NCBI GenBank assembly: GCA_048939625.1
Contig: JBHLPH010000037.1
Location: 1-12,495 of the forward strand
Direction of reading: 5' to 3'
DNA from: Promethearchaeota archaeon
GTDB lineage: Archaea; Asgardarchaeota; Hermodarchaeia; Hermodarchaeales; Hermodarchaeaceae
DNA: 12,495 nucleotides
The notes below the pieces were generated by a model that was not told the DNA's origin, did not search any database, and saw only the letters and a list, made by a program, of their open reading frames with translations. Numbering within the stretch: position 1 is the stretch's first letter; every line of letters begins with the position of its first letter. The position numbers and the translations under genes are program-made. Shown one piece after another: positions 1,470 to 12,120 of this stretch.

Positions 1470-1768
1470 GAAGATCCGATGGCTATTTCGAGAAGAGCGA
1501 ATTAAAGTAGAACAGTGAAGCAAACAGGACTTACTCGTTTGAACAAGTTGTCGAAGCTCATCGCAATGTCAAAAAAAGACGTAAAAAGGATAATGTAATC
1601 ATAACAGTAGAACATAGATGAAACAAATCTTGGGTATATGCAACTAAACAAGTGCTTTACCGGTGCGATGACAATAAAAGAAATCTACTTTTTCGATGTT
1701 TGCAAATTTATGTGTCGAACCTATCTGAACTTGTAAGATTTTTAAGAGGTTAGAGCCGTGTTCTTATT

Positions 1769-1806
1769 CTACTCTCACTTTGTGATAGTAGTGTTCAACA
1801 ATTGAA
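1769..1806. promoter_or_regulatory. Two adjacent inverted repeats between a TATA-like box and the start of the 1821 gene
   Basis: CTACT-c-TCAC-ttt-GTGA-t-AGTAG (1769-1791) and TTCAA-caa-TTGAA (1794-1806), downstream of TTTTTAAG at about 1739-1746. Confidence 0.35.
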
Positions 1807-1820
1807 GAGGCTTTAGCACG

Positions 1821-2153
1821 ATGGCTAAAAGTACTGTCCAACAAATAGGCGAGATTCTTGTACTCATTGGTGCAATCATTTCACTGATTTTCGGTATCCT
1901 CATGCTCATCCCCGGTATCGGTTGGAGCATTATTCCAATATTCTGGGGTTGGGGCCTCGACATCATCTTTGGTATCATTGTAATCATTGTATCCTTGATC
2001 ACGCTCGCTACCTCGGGTTTCATCAAGTTTCCATGGAAACTTGAAAAGAATTGGATTATGCTTCTTATCCTTGGCATTATTCTCCTCATCTTCGGAGGAG
2101 ACATTGGTGCTATTCTGGTGATAATCGGCGCAATCCTTCTTATCTTCAAATAA
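1821..2153 (+). CDS. Small hydrophobic membrane protein (about 4 TM), function unknown
   Basis: 110 aa rich in I/L/G with about four hydrophobic segments; GAGG SD-like site upstream; terminator immediately downstream. Confidence 0.8.
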   Translation: MAKSTVQQIGEILVLIGAIISLIFGILMLIPGIGWSIIPIFWGWGLDIIFGIIVIIVSLITLATSGFIKFPWKLEKNWIMLLILGIILLIFGGDIGAILVIIGAILLIFK

Positions 2154-2155
2154 AT

Positions 2156-2186
2156 GAGGGGAACTTACCCCTCTCATCTTTTTTTT
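2156..2186 (+). terminator. Hairpin plus T-tract terminator
   Basis: GAGGGG-aactta-CCCCTC (2156-2173) followed by T8 (2179-2186), just after the TAA stop at 2153. Confidence 0.7.
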
Positions 2187-2210
2187 CGAAAAATACGGAC
2201 TACCAGAACT

Positions 2211-2436
2211 TCTTCACCTATATAGCTTCTATGAGGTGATGACTGCAAAAGAAGGGGATTTGATTTTATGGGTATCACCCAATAAAATCTCTAAAAATCT
2301 TATGCGGTTATCGCTCTTAAGAACGCCTTCTTTAGTCTTTGCGGATCGAAGCTACTTATGTTGGTGGTCGCTGCGTATTTTCACGAAACGAATTAGAAGT
2401 AGCATTTTACTAGCAGCGCATCTACAAACGGAGATG
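2211..2436. other. Intergenic region with multiple nested complementary segments; candidate structured RNA or element remnant
   Basis: Hairpin 2214-2239; helix 2241-2255/2326-2337 enclosing hairpins 2262-2289 and 2298-2322; crossing helices 2351-2357/2397-2403 and 2369-2374/2413-2418. Confidence 0.35.
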
Positions 2437-2443
2437 GGCTTGG

Positions 2444-2755
2444 TTATAATTCTGAGAGGTCCACAGCTGAACCCTGCATACAATAATAACTCCATCGCAT
2501 ACTCATGGTCTTTGTGAGTGGGCATTCGAAACACAGACAGCCCTTTTGGTCTTGGATCGAATTGGATTTACCTAAGGTGCAATAGACCCGATTGATTTCC
2601 CCGCTGTCGATGTTGGTCGGACACTGATTGCAGAGACACAGATGAATCGCGTTTTGTGCTGCTTGTTTTTGTACGGCTTCAGACATGCTACTCATCATCA
2701 TCTGGTACTTTTCCTCAAAGGATGCAGTTGGCCATTTTTCATCAGGTGTTGCCAC
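2444..2755 (-). CDS. DUF2769-like Cys-rich metal-binding protein
   Basis: CLCNQCP...YCTLGKS...GCLCFECP...YYC matches the repeated CxCxxCP/(Y/F)CxxG pattern of DUF2769. Start moved from 2764 to the GTG at 2755 because GAGGTGA lies just upstream as an SD. Confidence 0.75.
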   Translation of the reverse strand: MATPDEKWPTASFEEKYQMMMSSMSEAVQKQAAQNAIHLCLCNQCPTNIDSGEINRVYCTLGKSNSIQDQKGCLCFECPLTKTMSMRWSYYCMQGSAVDLSEL

Positions 2756-2763
2756 GCAGATCA

Positions 2764-2784
2764 CCTCATTGACTGATAATGAGG
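2764..2784. promoter_or_regulatory. Inverted repeat overlapping the SD of the DUF2769-like gene
   Basis: CCTCATT-n7-AATGAGG, perfect 7-bp arms; one arm contains the GAGG of the minus-strand SD. Confidence 0.45.
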
Positions 2785-2998
2785 AAAGAGGTTATGTAAA
2801 GGCTTCTTAAGTTCGTCTATTCGATAACAATCACCAGCGTCGATTCATTCAACCTTAAATTACTGACATAAATGACTAACATACGTGAGTACGCTCAACT
2901 TGTCTGGTAATTTTTCTAATACTAAATGGTTATAGTTATAAACATATAAATAAATAAACGCACTCACCCAATCAGACACAGGATACCCGCGTAACACG

Positions 2999-3553
2999 GT
3001 GATAGAACTGCCACTCGATCACAAGAACTTTGGACGACTCACTGAAGGATTTACAATCACAATTGGCATAGGCGTCGCTATTACGATTTCCGGACTTATT
3101 GCCTTTGGGCTGCTTCTGTTCGTGGGTGTTCCTTGGTTTACCATTCCTCTGATTTTTGTATTCTTAGGTATGTGGATTGCGACTAACCAGTGGAATGAAC
3201 TCAATAGGCTCAGAATCGTGGCGGGATTTGTAGCCTCTATTACTCATCCTACTCGCATTACTACCACAGCGAATTTACTTAATATGAAGCGGCATACATT
3301 CGTCCATGCGCTAACCAAGCTAATTACGCGTGGGGCTGTTGAAATCAGTATCTTTCCGGAGGTTGATACCTTTGGACCGAAGGGATGTAAACGACCAAAT
3401 TCAGTGCCAAAGGATTATCAGCCTCCCACCCCTATTCCAATCACTTCTCGTCAACAGTTATCAACCATTCTTCAATGGATTGGACTCATTGGTACCATTA
3501 TTGCCATCGTCTACCATATTATTGGGTTATTACGGTATCTAGGTTTTTTCTAG
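2999..3553 (+). CDS. Hypothetical membrane protein (2 N-terminal TM, winged-helix/PCI-like loop, Pro-rich linker, C-terminal TM)
   Basis: Hydrophobic segments at about aa 18-62 and 157-184; the soluble segment RITTTANLLNMKRHTFVHALTKLITRGAVEISIFPEVDTF has wHTH/PCI-like periodicity; AT-rich TATA-like region at about 2936-2957. Confidence 0.65.
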   Translation: MIELPLDHKNFGRLTEGFTITIGIGVAITISGLIAFGLLLFVGVPWFTIPLIFVFLGMWIATNQWNELNRLRIVAGFVASITHPTRITTTANLLNMKRHTFVHALTKLITRGAVEISIFPEVDTFGPKGCKRPNSVPKDYQPPTPIPITSRQQLSTILQWIGLIGTIIAIVYHIIGLLRYLGFF

Positions 3554-3689
3554 GGCTATTTACTCGGATAGGCATGCTTAGAATCAACTCAATATTTTGC
3601 GAATCGATACAATGAACCGAGGTATTAAAGACGATGAGCCCAAAAGTATAATAGGTTCGATTTGAAGGGTTCACTGGAAGGTAACGATA

Positions 3690-4301
3690 ATGTCAGCTAT
3701 TCGACGATTCGCATCATGGCTGGGTGGCGGTCCCGACCTGAAGAAGCTCATCTTCCGACTCGACGTCTTCTGTCGGAAGCTCGATTTACAACGGAAGATG
3801 CTCGAAAAAGAAGCGAGTAAAAGCCGCCAACGGGCCAAAAAATACCGCCTTGCAGGCAATATGGATGCCACGCGGATGTACCTGCAACATCATTTGCGGT
3901 TTCAAAAATGGGCCCTTAGCGTAGACTCTTATCGCCTACGTATCGAAGGATTACAAACACAATTACGTCAAAGTGAAGCCATGGGTGAAGTAGCGAAAAT
4001 CCTTGGGCAACTCAACTCTGCCCTCGGTGGACTCAAGAACCAAGTAAAAGTTCCTGAGGTCGCAAAACTGGTTGATCAAATCGAAGGCAACCTCCGTCAC
4101 TTCGAAATGACCCAAGAAGTCGCTGAAGCGGGCATGGACCGCATGGCGGTTTCAACAGAAGTCACCGATGGCGAAGTGAAAGATGCACTCAAAGAGCTCG
4201 ATTCTGAAATCGAGGTTGAAACCGGTACTTCATTGCCAGAACCGGAAAAACGAGTCTCGGAGCTCGAAAAGGAAATCGAGCGATTAAAGGAGGAGGGCTA
4301 G
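3690..4301 (+). CDS. ESCRT-III protein, Vps2/Vps24/Vps46 (CHMP1-3) class, Snf7 family
   Basis: Basic N-half and acidic C-half; AKKYRLAGNMDATRMY resembles CHMP1/Did2 IKKAIQKGNMEVARIH; amphipathic N-terminus (IRRFASWLGG); C-terminal MIM1-like ELEKEIERLK; SD-like GGAAGGT upstream. Confidence 0.88.
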   Translation: MSAIRRFASWLGGGPDLKKLIFRLDVFCRKLDLQRKMLEKEASKSRQRAKKYRLAGNMDATRMYLQHHLRFQKWALSVDSYRLRIEGLQTQLRQSEAMGEVAKILGQLNSALGGLKNQVKVPEVAKLVDQIEGNLRHFEMTQEVAEAGMDRMAVSTEVTDGEVKDALKELDSEIEVETGTSLPEPEKRVSELEKEIERLKEEG

Positions 4302-4305
4302 ACCA

Positions 4306-4938
4306 ATGGCTAAATTCTGGGAAAAACTATTTCCGAAAAAACCTGAACCCAAAGAAGATACAATTGCCCGTATCCATCGGGTCACCGATAAACTCGAAGT
4401 CCGTGGCAGACAATATGAGACAAAAGCCAAGGACTCACGCATCAAAGCAATTCGCTATGTTCGACGGGGAGACCGAAAAGCCGCAAAGCTCCAGCTCCGT
4501 CGTCGGCAACGCTATCTGCGAAAAGCTCGCCTAATTGAACAAGAAATCGATTTGATGGAACGTGGTGTCGAAGCCATCGATCAGGCTCGTGGTGAAACAG
4601 AAGTCATTGGTGCACTCAAAGGCATCGGAACTGAGCTGGAGAATCTCCGTGAAACGGCTTCTCCTGAGGTTGCCCGCGAAGTGATTCTTGAAACCCAAGC
4701 CCTTATTGAAGAGGCTGAAGCGACTGAAGAAATTCTAGGACTTGGTCTTGAAGACGAGGAAATGGATGCTGAAGTTGATGCCGAACTCGAGGATATTGAA
4801 ACCATGATTGCCCTCGAAGAAGCTGGTCAGCTTCCCTCTGTTCCTGAAGGCGAAGAAGAGCTCTTGGAAACCTCTGAAGAACGACGAGAGCGCACCAAAC
4901 GTGAACTCGAACGCCTCAAAAAGGAAGTCAAAGAATAA
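4306..4938 (+). CDS. ESCRT-III protein, Vps20/Vps32(Snf7)/Vps60 class
   Basis: N-terminal membrane anchor MAKFWEKLF; RGDRKAAKLQLRRRQRY resembles Snf7 KGNKVMAKNALKKKK; acidic DAEVDAELEDIE; MIM2-like LPSVP; starts 4 nt after the previous stop, with a GGAGG SD inside the upstream gene. Confidence 0.9.
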   Translation: MAKFWEKLFPKKPEPKEDTIARIHRVTDKLEVRGRQYETKAKDSRIKAIRYVRRGDRKAAKLQLRRRQRYLRKARLIEQEIDLMERGVEAIDQARGETEVIGALKGIGTELENLRETASPEVAREVILETQALIEEAEATEEILGLGLEDEEMDAEVDAELEDIETMIALEEAGQLPSVPEGEEELLETSEERRERTKRELERLKKEVKE

Positions 4939-4982: not shown

Positions 4983-6446
4983 CTAGCGCCGTCGTAAATC
5001 ACGAATTTGAGCTTCAACCAGATAAAGTTCTTGAGTCAGGGATCGATACTGCTTGAAGAATTTCTCATCAGATAGTTTGCCTTCCTCAAATTGCTTCTTC
5101 AGCAGTTCCATCGTTGACTCGATGCTAAAGCGTTGCTGCTCCAACTGAAATACGGGATCACGCTCTAGCGCATCAGATCGTGAGCTAAACCGAGGATAGT
5201 GACCTTCGGGATAAGAATAGGGTCGAATCACCTCGGGCTGATGAGGTTTCTCTGCGTCATCCGCCGAGACTGCGTAATTAATTAGCTGGTCTAGTTCTTC
5301 GCGAAGGGATGTGACATCAACTTTCAGGTTCAAAATGCGGAGTGATCCTGATGTAGTTACTAAGCTGTGGTCAGCAAAACTTGTTGCTAAATTTATTGCA
5401 TCAGGCGTCTCGTCTAAAACTTTGGATGGGCCACTAATTTTTAGTTCTTCTGAATCGGTTGTGATGTGCAATTTTCGGCGGATTCGACCATGTAATTCCA
5501 CATCATTGATGTCGGTCAGGGCTAAAGTGTGAACCACACGGGTTTCCTTATTGAAGAAGCCCTTCCGTCCAAGAAATATCAAGCGACGGGAAGTGATGAA
5601 CAGAATGCCATTGCCCATTCCCTCGTTTGACTCAGTCTTACTCAGATTTACTGGTTGGATGGCTGCAACGGGGCGTTCATCTTCTAAGACGGGTAAATAT
5701 TCAATATGATCATTGAAGAGTTTGTGCCACTCCGCGATCTGGGTTAATCGCGCTTCAATGGTCGCTAGATCCACATCCAGCTCGTTAACCAAATCGCGGC
5801 AATACGCCTGATAGTCCGCAACATCCTCTTGAATGGCTTCAATCAAACCAGCTAACAGTGGAAAATCAGTAATGGTCCACTGTTCCGGTTGCATGAAACG
5901 GTATTTACTGGCTCGGTGGCGCTCAACCACATTACGCGCACGGAAAAGAATCCGTTCATGAACACTCGGAAGGGCAGTTTTCATTAACTCTAGGAGTTCC
6001 TTTTCCACTTCAGGATCGTGAAGAAAACTTGCGGTACGTAACTCTCGGACTCGCCAGCGAAGAATCCGAAGTCGAGCCGCAAATCCTGCTAATAATTCAT
6101 GTCCCGTTCGGAGTCGATAATAGGTTGTCCTGAATCGTCCCACCAGCTCTTGGCGCATATTATGAATAGGTACAATTTCTTCGGAGCCACAATTAGGACA
6201 AAGATGCACACGGCGTGTTGCCATCTGGGCTGGTTCTTCACATTCAGTGCAAATCCATTCTCCCTCTTCTTGTTCTTCAAGATGATCTGGGCCACACCTA
6301 GCACAAGTGTAAAACTCGCTTAGGTCTTGGCGTGAACAAGGCAGGCAAAACACCTGTCCGCATTCCTTGCAATAACGTTCAGCCATGTTGATATGGCAGG
6401 AGGGACAAAACCCACTGTTTTTTTGATCCACCGCTGGCTGGGACAT
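4983..6446 (-). CDS. Multidomain ESCRT-associated candidate: Zn-finger (6 CxxC), helical region, GRAM/GLUE-like PH domain, Vps23/Vps37-like steadiness box
   Basis: Six CxxC pairs at 6189-6407; GNGILFITSRRLIF PH motif within 5382-5696; C-terminal SIESTMELLKKQFEEGKLSDEKFFKQYRSLTQELY resembles TSG101 AIEDTIFYLGEALRRGVIDLDVFLKHVRLLSRKQF. The ATG at 6446 (preceded by GAAAGGT) is preferred over the TTG at 6485. Confidence 0.7.
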   Translation of the reverse strand: MSQPAVDQKNSGFCPSCHINMAERYCKECGQVFCLPCSRQDLSEFYTCARCGPDHLEEQEEGEWICTECEEPAQMATRRVHLCPNCGSEEIVPIHNMRQELVGRFRTTYYRLRTGHELLAGFAARLRILRWRVRELRTASFLHDPEVEKELLELMKTALPSVHERILFRARNVVERHRASKYRFMQPEQWTITDFPLLAGLIEAIQEDVADYQAYCRDLVNELDVDLATIEARLTQIAEWHKLFNDHIEYLPVLEDERPVAAIQPVNLSKTESNEGMGNGILFITSRRLIFLGRKGFFNKETRVVHTLALTDINDVELHGRIRRKLHITTDSEELKISGPSKVLDETPDAINLATSFADHSLVTTSGSLRILNLKVDVTSLREELDQLINYAVSADDAEKPHQPEVIRPYSYPEGHYPRFSSRSDALERDPVFQLEQQRFSIESTMELLKKQFEEGKLSDEKFFKQYRSLTQELYLVEAQIRDLRRR

Positions 6447-6578: not shown

Positions 6579-7268
6579 TTAGGAGCCTTTTATTATTACG
6601 ATTTGGCGATTCAAAGGAAGGGCTACATTATAAACTTGAACCTTGTGTACCTTAGCCTTTCGAAGTCCTCGATGCGCGTGACCATGAATCACCAGTTTTG
6701 GTGTGTGTCGCTGGAGGAGTTCTTCAACTCGTTGACTCCCCATCTGCGCAAAATCCCTGTTCACCTCGCCTTTCAAGGTGGTAAAGGTTGAAGCATAATG
6801 GGTTAGTAATATCGTGTAGGCATTAGATTTCTTCGCTTCTGTCAGTAGCGAGTCCAGAGTGATGACACGTTCGGTGTATTGCTCACGGATTTCTTGGATG
6901 TTTCGTGCTTGCCAAAAAGTCGGTTGATCGAGTACTCCACGACTTCCAATGATTGCGACCTTCTTGCCTTGAATATGGAAGGTCATGAGTTCGTCATCAA
7001 GAAAGATAATTGTTCCTTCTGATTGCGCTCGAAGCGAATCCTTAATGGAATCATAATCATCATTTCCGAAGCAGGCAACAACCGGGCATTCTATATTTGC
7101 TTGCTTGAGTTTCTCAAGAAGCGGCTTCATACTTCGGGGATTTCCACGATTCACTAAGTCTCCTGCAAGGAGAAACAAATCAAGATTTGAGGGCAGTTGT
7201 CGTAACGATTTGATAAACAATCCCTGATATTGGGGCCAGTGAATATCACTTGTGGCAGCTATTCGCAG
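6579..7268 (-). CDS. Calcineurin-like metallophosphoesterase (Icc-related); probable CTG start
   Basis: Motifs AATSDIH (upstream of the ORF-track start, in frame), LAGDLVN, FGNDD, LLTHY and HGHAH. Confidence 0.88.
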   Translation of the reverse strand: MRIAATSDIHWPQYQGLFIKSLRQLPSNLDLFLLAGDLVNRGNPRSMKPLLEKLKQANIECPVVACFGNDDYDSIKDSLRAQSEGTIIFLDDELMTFHIQGKKVAIIGSRGVLDQPTFWQARNIQEIREQYTERVITLDSLLTEAKKSNAYTILLTHYASTFTTLKGEVNRDFAQMGSQRVEELLQRHTPKLVIHGHAHRGLRKAKVHKVQVYNVALPLNRQIVIIKGS

Positions 7269-8203: not shown

Positions 8204-8383
8204 GGGAAACAGCTCGCCGATGAAATGAGCTTTAACGCTTCTGCCTTATATAGAAAACGGCGAAAGGAGGGTGCCCTAGCGAATACTTTCAATGACCTCT
8301 CTGCAGAGTGTCTGTCTATTCAAACAGATAATCACAAATATCTAAAAAAGGACTGGAACCCGCTTAGATTAAAGGGAAACGGC

Positions 8384-9373
8384 TTGTCGGACGATAACTC
8401 TTTTTTCGACTCTGAAACCCACGTCAACCATGGGCTCCTCCAATTGGGGTACATGATCCAAGACCATCAAACTCACCCTTTCTCATTAACCCTCCAAGAC
8501 CTTAGCAACCTCCTAGTCGTAGGACCTCGGGCTCATGATATTTACTTCAACCTCCTCATTCAACTCTGTGATGACCACCGGATACCGGTCCTGGTCATTA
8601 AAGGGTCTCCTTCAGAGGGTCTTGAAGAGCAAGTCTGTGAATGCCCACTCTGGCATATCGACTTGGAAGCAGAGGCGATAACCTTTGATGCACTAAGCCT
8701 AGCGAATGGGCGGAATCCGTCCCAGCAAATCAGTATTCTCATCCAGCTCTTCGAAAGGTATGGACCATTAACACCTACAGCACGAAACCTTCTACATGTC
8801 ATCATCTGGCGAACTATTTTGATGGCATCACCACCAACGCTCCAGTATCTTCAGAATACTCTTCCCTTCTATGAACACTATAATGCCCCCTATCATGAAA
8901 TCCGTCGATTACTCAACGCCCTGCCACACAATCTATTAGATGCTAACTATGACAATCTATCCCTAACGCGCATCCAACATCTCCCCACAATCATCTCAGG
9001 CAATGATACTCCCAATGCCACCTTTAGCATTAACTTGCTACTACTAAAACTCCTCGCTCATCAATCGGAGACACTTCCTGCTTTGTTCCTCGTCAACACC
9101 CCAGAAATTGCTCCCCAAATTCTCGAATGGTTATCAGCAAGATACACGACTAGCAACACACCTTTCGTAATCTTTGAAAACCAGAATTCAACTTTACTAC
9201 ATTCAATGGCACACACTTGTAATTTCATTCTCACAAGCAGCATTGATGTAGAACCCTCTCCTCTATTACAACAACTTACCGAACACGAACAACGCTTCTT
9301 ACAACTCAACAATGACCACGTTGCTGTATGCCTTCGAAGTGAGCCTGCGACTCGTTTTATTACAATTTTCTGA
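8384..9373 (+). CDS. Degenerate HerA/FtsK/VirB4-like P-loop protein, predicted catalytically inactive
   Basis: Strand order follows HerA (PFSLTLQDLSNLLVVG, IPVLVIKG, ALFLVN, FVIFENQN, HTCNFIL) but there is no GxxGxGKT or DE. The start is uncertain: TTG at 8384 is preferred over ATG at 8225, which would leave only 21 nt for divergent promoters. Confidence 0.55.
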   Translation: MSDDNSFFDSETHVNHGLLQLGYMIQDHQTHPFSLTLQDLSNLLVVGPRAHDIYFNLLIQLCDDHRIPVLVIKGSPSEGLEEQVCECPLWHIDLEAEAITFDALSLANGRNPSQQISILIQLFERYGPLTPTARNLLHVIIWRTILMASPPTLQYLQNTLPFYEHYNAPYHEIRRLLNALPHNLLDANYDNLSLTRIQHLPTIISGNDTPNATFSINLLLLKLLAHQSETLPALFLVNTPEIAPQILEWLSARYTTSNTPFVIFENQNSTLLHSMAHTCNFILTSSIDVEPSPLLQQLTEHEQRFLQLNNDHVAVCLRSEPATRFITIF

Positions 9374-11724: not shown

Positions 11725-12120
11725 TCACTTTTTAGCAAAGAGAGCAGCAATCTCGCGTCCGAAGTGTCGGAAAACTGATACAACGTGGCCAAGGGATTCG
11801 ATTTTCACCCCTGCACCGATAAGCACAAGGGGTCCAGCATCTGTCACCACGATGATACCTTTCTCACCACGCACAATAAGTTCGAATAAGGGTTCGAAGG
11901 CCAGTTTTTGAACGGCTTCAATTCCAGTTTGTAGTAGCACGGCAGAAATAGCAGAGAGTAAGTCCGGATCAATATCAACGCCTTTAGTTGAGCTAAAAGC
12001 GACTCGTCGACCTGCTTTTGTGACAACTGCCAGTGTTTCGAGTTCTGTATACAAAGTGATTTCGCGTAAATACATAGCCAATTGTTTAGCTTCTTCTTCG
12101 CTCATCGCAAATTGCTGCAT
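11725..12120 (-). CDS. Roadblock/LC7 (MglB/LAMTOR-like) domain protein
   Basis: LAVVTKAGRRVA, DLLSAISAVLLQTG and ELIVRGEKGIIVVTDAG follow the roadblock alpha-beta-beta-alpha-beta-beta-beta-alpha pattern. Confidence 0.85.
   Translation of the reverse strand: MQQFAMSEEEAKQLAMYLREITLYTELETLAVVTKAGRRVAFSSTKGVDIDPDLLSAISAVLLQTGIEAVQKLAFEPLFELIVRGEKGIIVVTDAGPLVLIGAGVKIESLGHVVSVFRHFGREIAALFAKK

Follow-up and report, generated by a model that had tools for sequence, protein, structure and literature searches.

A candidate ESCRT-I-type adaptor of the Asgard family Znr_CC_PH_SB, encoded tail-to-tail with an ESCRT-III gene pair

The Znr_CC_PH_SB family and its short-form member

Makarova et al. (2024, mBio 15:e00335-24; PMC10936438) described an Asgard-specific protein family named Znr_CC_PH_SB (asCOG cog.011556), also written Znr_PH_CC_SB. 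They regarded it as 'a likely ESCRT-I component' whose PH domain is 'expected to be membrane associated', and their table includes a member of 650 aa from Lokiarchaeum GC14_75. In the literature that we searched, no experiment on any member of this family is reported, and nothing on it newer than the 2024 paper was found. Hatano et al. 2022 (PMC9192718) and Lu et al. 2023 (bioRxiv 10.1101/2023.07.25.550441) both contain no mention of a PH domain and no zinc finger in an Asgard ESCRT protein.

The window analysed here is a stretch of 12,495 nucleotides that corresponds to an entire contig (C56) of an Asgard archaeal assembly of 2.31 Mb in 83 contigs, estimated to be 87.6% complete. The gene under study occupies positions 4983..6446 of the reverse strand and encodes a protein of 487 aa, the coding part (4986-6446) comprising 487 codons followed by a stop codon at 4983-4985. 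A TTG located 13 codons before the ATG is another possible start. We place the start at the ATG at position 6446, because in the alignment the close homologues, which are 51-95% identical to the target, begin with the identical Met-Ser-Gln.

An AF2 model of the protein, built on 18 homologues, has a mean pLDDT of 83.2 and displays small β elements (residues 23-93), three long helices, a seven-strand sandwich with a C-terminal helix (259-360), two short helices (365-373 and 379-393), a disordered linker and a terminal helical hairpin (431-454 and 460-486). The PH-like and hairpin segments delimited in a preliminary description of this DNA, which was made from the sequence alone, correspond to residues 251-355 and 430-487 and agree with the model.

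The features of Znr_CC_PH_SB, namely zinc Cys clusters (three Zn sites), a helical region, a PH domain and a steadiness box, are all found in the target protein. We file it in this family because its domain order, its lineage range and the existence of long forms in Lokiarchaeota match the published description, the identification being made through that description and the 650-aa table entry. A profile search of the full library retrieved 146 cluster representatives with E-values of 1e-3 or lower, 52 of them with 1e-30 or lower. The 146 include full-length forms of ~500 aa as well as longer ones, of 600-1171 aa, in which the linker is extended. The forms of 600-800 aa match the family profile at E 1e-53 to 1e-38; two of these are named in the records, P0055 and P0071 (700 and 690 aa), and both are proteins of Lokiarchaeota MAGs. 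Matches to the family at E 1e-10 or better are present in 186 of 301 sampled genomes of the phylum; in the same sample the family occurs in 68 of the 90 high-quality genomes and in 16 of 30 families. The feature is real and ordinary for Asgard archaea, and belongs to a family already published in 2024.

Domain architecture of the protein

Twelve of the 13 Cys of the protein sit in residues 14-86, as six CxxC pairs. None of the twelve varies among 20 family members, whose identity over the segment goes as low as 23%, and in a set of 21 full-length members, reaching down to 17% identity, each is either invariant or conserved to at least 90%. The 12-Cys module noticed at the N-terminus in the preliminary description is real. 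The first eight Cys (residues 14-51; 6294..6407, reverse strand), with the spacing C-x2-C-x8-C-x2-C-x4-C-x2-C-x10-C-x2-C, probably form a two-zinc cross-brace finger of the RING/B-box type. In a separate model of residues 9-100 (pLDDT 91.8) a helical turn carries the fifth and sixth Cys, an arrangement seen in cross-brace fingers of the treble-clef type; a Foldseek search with the zinc module alone, using this model, returned nothing at E 1e-3 or better. The last four Cys (residues 66-86; 6189..6251, reverse strand) are modelled as a zinc ribbon, with two CxxC knuckles and a β-hairpin (strands 64-66, 74-82 and 91-93), and give weak Pfam matches to DZR and Zn-ribbon families. The module is thus probably composed of one RING/B-box-like cross-brace finger and one ribbon, an assignment drawn from models and low-Z fold matches. 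A FYVE reading of the finger was rejected: the R(R/K)HHCR, WxxD and RVC motifs of PI3P binding are absent from the target sequence, the residues around the third and fourth Cys are A-E-R-Y-C-K-E-C-G, with no basic HH motif, and the Pfam FYVE match is weak (E 0.013 over 24 residues).

The likeness to RING domains raises the alternative of a RING-type ubiquitin ligase, or of another factor that handles ubiquitin. The cross-brace finger would then recruit the E2 of the ESCRT cluster and the protein would ubiquitylate cargo or ESCRT-I, the PH domain and the hairpin serving for targeting only. The family profile matches the RING domains of RNF4 (E 1.6e-5), COP1 (1.6e-3), TRIM31 and BRE1, and the VIA list for the zinc module consists mostly of RING, B-box and U-box folds, at low Z. 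In addition, the gene in relatives adjoins a cluster that includes ubiquitin, E2, E1 and a small RING protein, and an E1-E2-RING cascade has been found to ubiquitylate an Asgard steadiness box (bioRxiv 10.1101/2023.07.25.550441). From our reading of the alignment, the positions at which a RING contacts its E2, the Pro after the seventh Cys and the basic linchpin after the eighth, vary or are Gly/Ser in this family. On balance we regard a ligase as quite improbable.

The zinc module is followed by a helical stalk (residues 94-246; 5709..6167, reverse strand), modelled as three long helices (94-138, 145-185 and 194-246) with pLDDT 85-98, which corresponds to the 'CC' of the published family name. 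Its sequence gave no Pfam or PDB match in our searches. R137 and the turn around it, L-R-x-x-x-F-x-H-D-P, are conserved in the family alignment.

The seven-strand sandwich (residues 259-360; 5367..5672, reverse strand) is a PH domain of GRAM/GLUE-like appearance. In the fold comparison it scored highest with the PH-GRAM domain of MTMR2 (12.9; rmsd 2.4-2.5 Å over 106-107 aligned residues, 18-20% identity), followed by the C-terminal domain of a Leishmania protein of unknown function (4tyz; 12.1-12.2), the PH-like domain of Lam6 (11.9), the GLUE domain of EAP45 (11.7 for 2hth_B and 10.4 for 2dx5_A), bacterial PH domains (about 11) and the GLUE domain of yeast Vps36 (2cay_B; 10.5, 20% identity). 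The Pfam matches of this segment to bPH_3 and GRAM are below threshold. The GRAM/GLUE-like character proposed earlier therefore stands at the level of the fold, but not the specific analogy with Vps36, since GLUE domains do not score above GRAM and other PH domains, and a specific Vps36 ancestry of this domain is not supported. The loop between strands 5 and 6 (residues 320-325), with the pattern G-R-h-R-K-R, is basic and conserved throughout the family alignment, which may hint at binding to an acidic surface. A resemblance of the whole model to DH-PH proteins (RhoGEF), suggested by the top Foldseek hits, was discarded (TM about 0.2, rmsd 17-26 Å); the alignment to RhoGEF covers the PH part only, with a VIA aligned range of 234-360.

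Two short conserved helices (365-393) and a disordered linker containing Pro and Tyr (394-430) come after the PH domain (together 5157..5354, reverse strand). The pLDDT of the linker falls below 50 at residues 401-425. Its length varies across the family and is greatly expanded in the Lokiarchaeota forms of 600-800 aa.

The C-terminal hairpin (residues 431-486; 4989..5156, reverse strand) is modelled with pLDDT 90-95. Pfam Vps23_core matches 18 of 18 family members (best E 1.9e-6), and the family profile finds the yeast Vps23 chains 2p22_A (E 6.6e-6), 2caz_A (2.9e-5) and 2f66_A (5.1e-5). When the hairpin profile was aligned with hhalign to the C-terminal hairpin of the UEV-Vps23 of the same lineage, the probability was 98% (E 2.3e-13, 62 columns), against 77% (E 2e-5) for the N-terminal hairpin of Vps28. 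By these profile comparisons the hairpin is assigned as a steadiness box of the Vps23 type, specifically Vps23-like rather than Vps28-like, and the steadiness box claimed in the preliminary description is confirmed. The protein also lacks a UEV, as had been described, with no Pfam match to UEV or UQ_con, and a canonical Vps23 that does carry a UEV is encoded separately in the same genome. A SHOCT domain or a generic coiled coil was rejected for the C-terminus, which has no SHOCT match and gives strong and specific profile matches to Vps23; the sole coiled-coil family found there by Pfam is APG6_N, at E 0.25.

At the other extreme, the protein could be unrelated to ESCRT altogether, being a zinc-finger/coiled-coil protein whose likeness to the steadiness box arose by chance and whose gene order is a coincidence. 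Single-sequence Pfam scores do lie under threshold (for Vps23_core, the target alone reaches 19.9 bits, with a curated cut-off of 26.8 bits), and amphipathic hairpins yield weak cross-matches such as that to APG6_N. However, the Vps23 matches at profile level are strong and specific, SHOCT is not matched, and the gene stays syntenic with ESCRT-III in a total of nine families; we consider such a double coincidence very improbable indeed.

In order to place the hairpin in a complex, we modelled it together with Vps28 (residues 1-100) and Vps23 (residues 175-251) of the same genome, with alignments for the three chains. The model scored 0.58 (0.65, 0.00 and 0.58 in the individual runs), compared with 0.27 for the best of three controls; the runs showed a contact agreement of at least 0% and a partner pLDDT of at least 69. 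In the calibration, 58 of the 80 solved complexes reached the mark, as did 2 of 110 mismatched pairs; with a score of 0.60 or lower, it was reached by only 7 of the 80 solved complexes, and by both of those mismatched pairs. With an unrelated protein in place of Vps28 the hairpin still scored 0.27. Moreover, the pass may reflect likeness only, because yeast ESCRT-I cores are among the solved structures, and it shifts the odds little. The modelling proposed in the preliminary description thus lends weak support to docking of the hairpin onto Vps28/Vps23, the 0.58 against 0.27 speaking for it and the run at 0.00 against it.

Conserved pairing with ESCRT-III genes

Two ESCRT-III genes of the Snf7 family lie beside the target gene on the forward strand, the nearer at 4306..4938 (Pfam Snf7 E 7.9e-18) and the second at 3690..4301 (E 3.7e-17), in agreement with the preliminary description, and a whole-genome search showed that they are the only two Snf7/ESCRT-III genes of the assembly. 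The target gene and the nearer ESCRT-III gene are convergent, with 44 nt between their stop codons. This pairing is conserved in relatives, a convergent Snf7 neighbour being present in seven of the eight homologue contigs with readable flanks. To this we added 20 loci, drawn from eight further families of the phylum and scanned with HMMs. At 14 of these loci an ESCRT-III gene is convergent with the target homologue at a gap of <150 nt, at five it lies 0.6-1.8 kb away, and at one it was not found. Homologues are therefore clearly linked to ESCRT genes, contrary to the absence of linkage that the preliminary description named among its refuting results, with the tail-to-tail pairing with ESCRT-III holding at 19 of the 20 loci and in nine families in all.

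The gene is almost always found in this tail-to-tail arrangement, at the edge of a ubiquitin-ESCRT supercluster. In relatives of 51-60% identity the order is UbiA, a metallophosphoesterase, the target homologue (forward), two Snf7 genes (reverse), Vps4 and Vps25 (forward) and Vps22 (reverse), and the cluster continues with a 97-aa protein, Vps28, UEV-Vps23 and a protein of ~175 aa (all reverse), then a small RING gene, ubiquitin, E2 and E1 (all forward). This contiguous order is read from three contigs; two of them have a called gene for the small RING protein, and the third stops short of E1. Closer relatives have one to three unrelated genes that separate Vps4 from the ESCRT-III pair. One large family has the order Vps22 (forward), Vps25 and Vps4 (reverse), Snf7 (forward) and target homologue (reverse).

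In the genome studied here, the genes for Vps22, Vps28, UEV-Vps23, ubiquitin and E2 are found on another contig (C45), where the block from Vps22 to E2 stands at the very start and follows the order of the relatives. Vps25 and an MIT-bearing Vps4 were not found in the 87.6%-complete assembly by tblastn with the proteins of relatives; these genes may fall in an assembly break, because their copies in relatives adjoin Vps22, which here sits at the contig edge. A match to Vps4_C was rejected as Vps4: the frame that holds it is 770 aa long, and tblastn matches to Vps4 on that contig are split over two separate AAA-type stretches, which suggests a CDC48-like protein instead. The idea of a compact ESCRT locus lacking ESCRT-I/II and ubiquitin was likewise abandoned. 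Because those genes sit on C45, and are contiguous with this locus in relatives, the locus is not a stripped-down ESCRT system.

The linkage pattern bears on a further alternative, that the protein is a recruiter of ESCRT-III that works without ESCRT-I, in the manner of CdvA or Bro1/ALIX. The PH domain would then act as the membrane anchor, and the hairpin would self-associate or contact ESCRT-III directly, bypassing Vps28, Vps23 and ESCRT-II. Tail-to-tail pairing with ESCRT-III is the most conserved genomic feature of the family (the 19 of 20 loci and seven of eight contigs given above), it is kept where the ESCRT-I/II genes lie elsewhere (in this window and at a second locus, L014), and it somewhat favours such a recruiter. 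The CdvA hairpin has also been reported to resemble the steadiness box in sequence (PMC10936438), and the score of 0.27 that persists when Vps28 is replaced points in the same direction. In contrast, the resemblance of the hairpin to that of Vps23 (98%, E 2e-13) is far greater than would be expected of a generic coiled coil, and neither a PRC barrel nor an E3B-like peptide was recognised in the protein. Furthermore, adjacency need not mean direct contact, because convergent genes are not co-transcribed. An ESCRT-I-independent recruiter is in our view the main alternative, though an unlikely one.

Proposed role and comparison with known systems

Our preferred reading, which we hold to be fairly probable, is that the protein is an accessory adaptor of the ESCRT-I type belonging to Znr_CC_PH_SB. 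The hairpin would pack into the ESCRT-I headpiece beside the hairpins of Vps28 and/or UEV-Vps23, either as a third subunit in the position of Vps37 or in place of Vps23. Membrane attachment of the complex would be provided by the PH domain and its conserved basic β5-β6 loop, and cargo, ubiquitin or another partner would be bound by the zinc module (cross-brace and ribbon), with the stalk and the linker setting the spacing between these modules. In this way, the protein may provide a direct membrane/cargo arm for an ESCRT-I-type complex, acting with the adjacent ESCRT-III pair.

A published analysis found no clear Vps37 in Asgard archaea, and a more ambitious version of the adaptor reading can be formulated. 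The hairpin would occupy the Vps37 position in a three-hairpin Asgard headpiece, making the protein the missing third subunit and the part that anchors the complex directly to the membrane. Ubiquitin would be read or written by its RING/B-box-like finger, and the protein would hand over to the ESCRT-III pair. It would then represent an ancestor-like state, with its functions later divided among Vps37, Vps36-GLUE and ESCRT-0. We consider this extended proposal doubtful. The earlier interpretation, in which the protein joins parts that eukaryotes divide between ESCRT-0, -I and -II, is partly supported overall: the ESCRT-I hairpin is borne out, but the FYVE/ESCRT-0 element is not, its motifs being absent, nor is a specific Vps36 element, the GLUE likeness not being distinct.

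The family is relevant to the way in which the eukaryotic ESCRT pathway arose from Asgard components. In one chain it combines an ESCRT-I assembly hairpin with a PH domain of membrane type and a zinc finger, and most sampled Asgard genomes carry it, next to ESCRT-III. As the architecture, like its ESCRT-I reading, dates from a 2024 publication, the window adds no new kind of system. What is added here is the tail-to-tail pairing with ESCRT-III in nine families, the Vps23-like rather than Vps28-like character of the hairpin, the indication that the first eight Cys are likelier to form a RING/B-box-type cross-brace than two ribbons, and weak modelling support for a place in the headpiece.

With eukaryotic and Asgard Vps23/TSG101 the protein shares a C-terminal hairpin homologous to the Vps23 core, but it has a zinc module and a PH domain instead of a UEV, and its helical region is a predicted intramolecular three-helix bundle, with the PH domain located between bundle and hairpin. 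The PH fold is common to the GLUE domains of Vps36/EAP45 and to GRAM-type PH domains (MTMR2, Lam6). In contrast to Vps36, however, the target PH domain has no NZF insert and the protein has no winged-helix ESCRT-II core domains; no EAP30-family match was found in it by Pfam, and the model contains only helices after the PH domain. Like the ESCRT-0 proteins Vps27/Hrs with their FYVE finger, it is a candidate upstream ESCRT factor with a Cys-rich, probably two-zinc finger at the N-terminus, but the PI3P motifs are lacking and the fold matches favour RING/B-box. The CdvA proteins of TACK archaea also combine a membrane-binding part with a steadiness-box-like hairpin, and their gene stands beside ESCRT-III. 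CdvA, however, carries a PRC barrel together with an E3B peptide for binding the CdvB winged helix, and neither was recognised here.

The closest described system is Znr_CC_PH_SB itself. The order of zinc Cys clusters, coiled-coil/helical region, PH domain and steadiness box is identical, both are restricted to Asgard archaea and located in ESCRT neighbourhoods, and the long Lokiarchaeota forms fit the 650-aa example. The zinc module, described by Makarova et al. as 'three Zn ribbons', is read here, on low-Z evidence, as more probably a cross-brace finger with one ribbon. Otherwise nothing essential sets the two apart, the target being a short form (487 aa) of the family with a brief linker between the PH domain and the hairpin.

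Neighbouring genes in the window

An open reading frame (ORF) for a metallophosphoesterase lies at 6579-7220 on the minus strand of the window and has TTG at its start. The encoded protein has 213 aa, versus 219 and 254 aa in two more distant relatives, and the counterpart in another relative has 200 aa. The plus-strand ORF at 8225-9373 codes for a protein of 382 aa without a match in Pfam, which shares 34% identity with its counterpart in L009, a locus from a relative's genome, and its position between UbiA and a 66-aa ORF is maintained in all the relatives examined. The GC skew is strongly negative around this gene, reaching a minimum of -0.29. Further along, the 131-aa ORF at 11725-12120 on the minus strand shares 80% identity with one of the neighbouring genes in L009, for which a weak Pfam match to Roadblock/LC7 was obtained. 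The ORF is a putative further eukaryote-signature-type gene retained in the same neighbourhood.

Variable stretch upstream of the ESCRT-III pair

The region upstream of the two Snf7 genes (1470-3690) contains small membrane-protein ORFs and has a reduced GC content (0.39-0.43), and in more distant relatives the same position is occupied by Vps4 and Vps25. One of the ORFs (2999-3553) codes for a 184-aa protein with transmembrane segments at its termini, and an equally long gene occupies the corresponding place in a contig whose Znr_CC_PH_SB-family protein is 95% identical to that of the window. This stretch is a variable insertion spot within the genus.

The remainder of the ubiquitin-ESCRT cluster

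The rest of the genome's own ubiquitin-ESCRT cluster is located at the extreme start of another contig, C45 (92-4555; loci L001, L002 and L004), and includes Vps22, a conserved 97-aa protein, Vps28, UEV-Vps23, a coiled-coil protein of ~180 aa, ubiquitin and E2. A tblastn search of the assembly with the relatives' proteins found neither Vps25 nor the MIT-bearing Vps4. Since both adjoin Vps22 in relatives, they may have been lost in the contig break at the start of C45.

One relative with 82% identity carries an IS605 OrfB/TnpB-type gene (L012:21338-21500) directly adjoining the cluster on its ESCRT-I side, and in other relatives this site is occupied by RING and ubiquitin.

The 97-aa protein is encoded between Vps28 and Vps22 on contig C45 (L002:463-753, minus strand), has no match in Pfam, and is 80% identical to its L009 counterpart. 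Vps28 C-terminal domains encoded by separate genes have been described in Asgard clusters (Makarova et al. 2024, PMC10936438), and the 97-aa protein may be such a domain.
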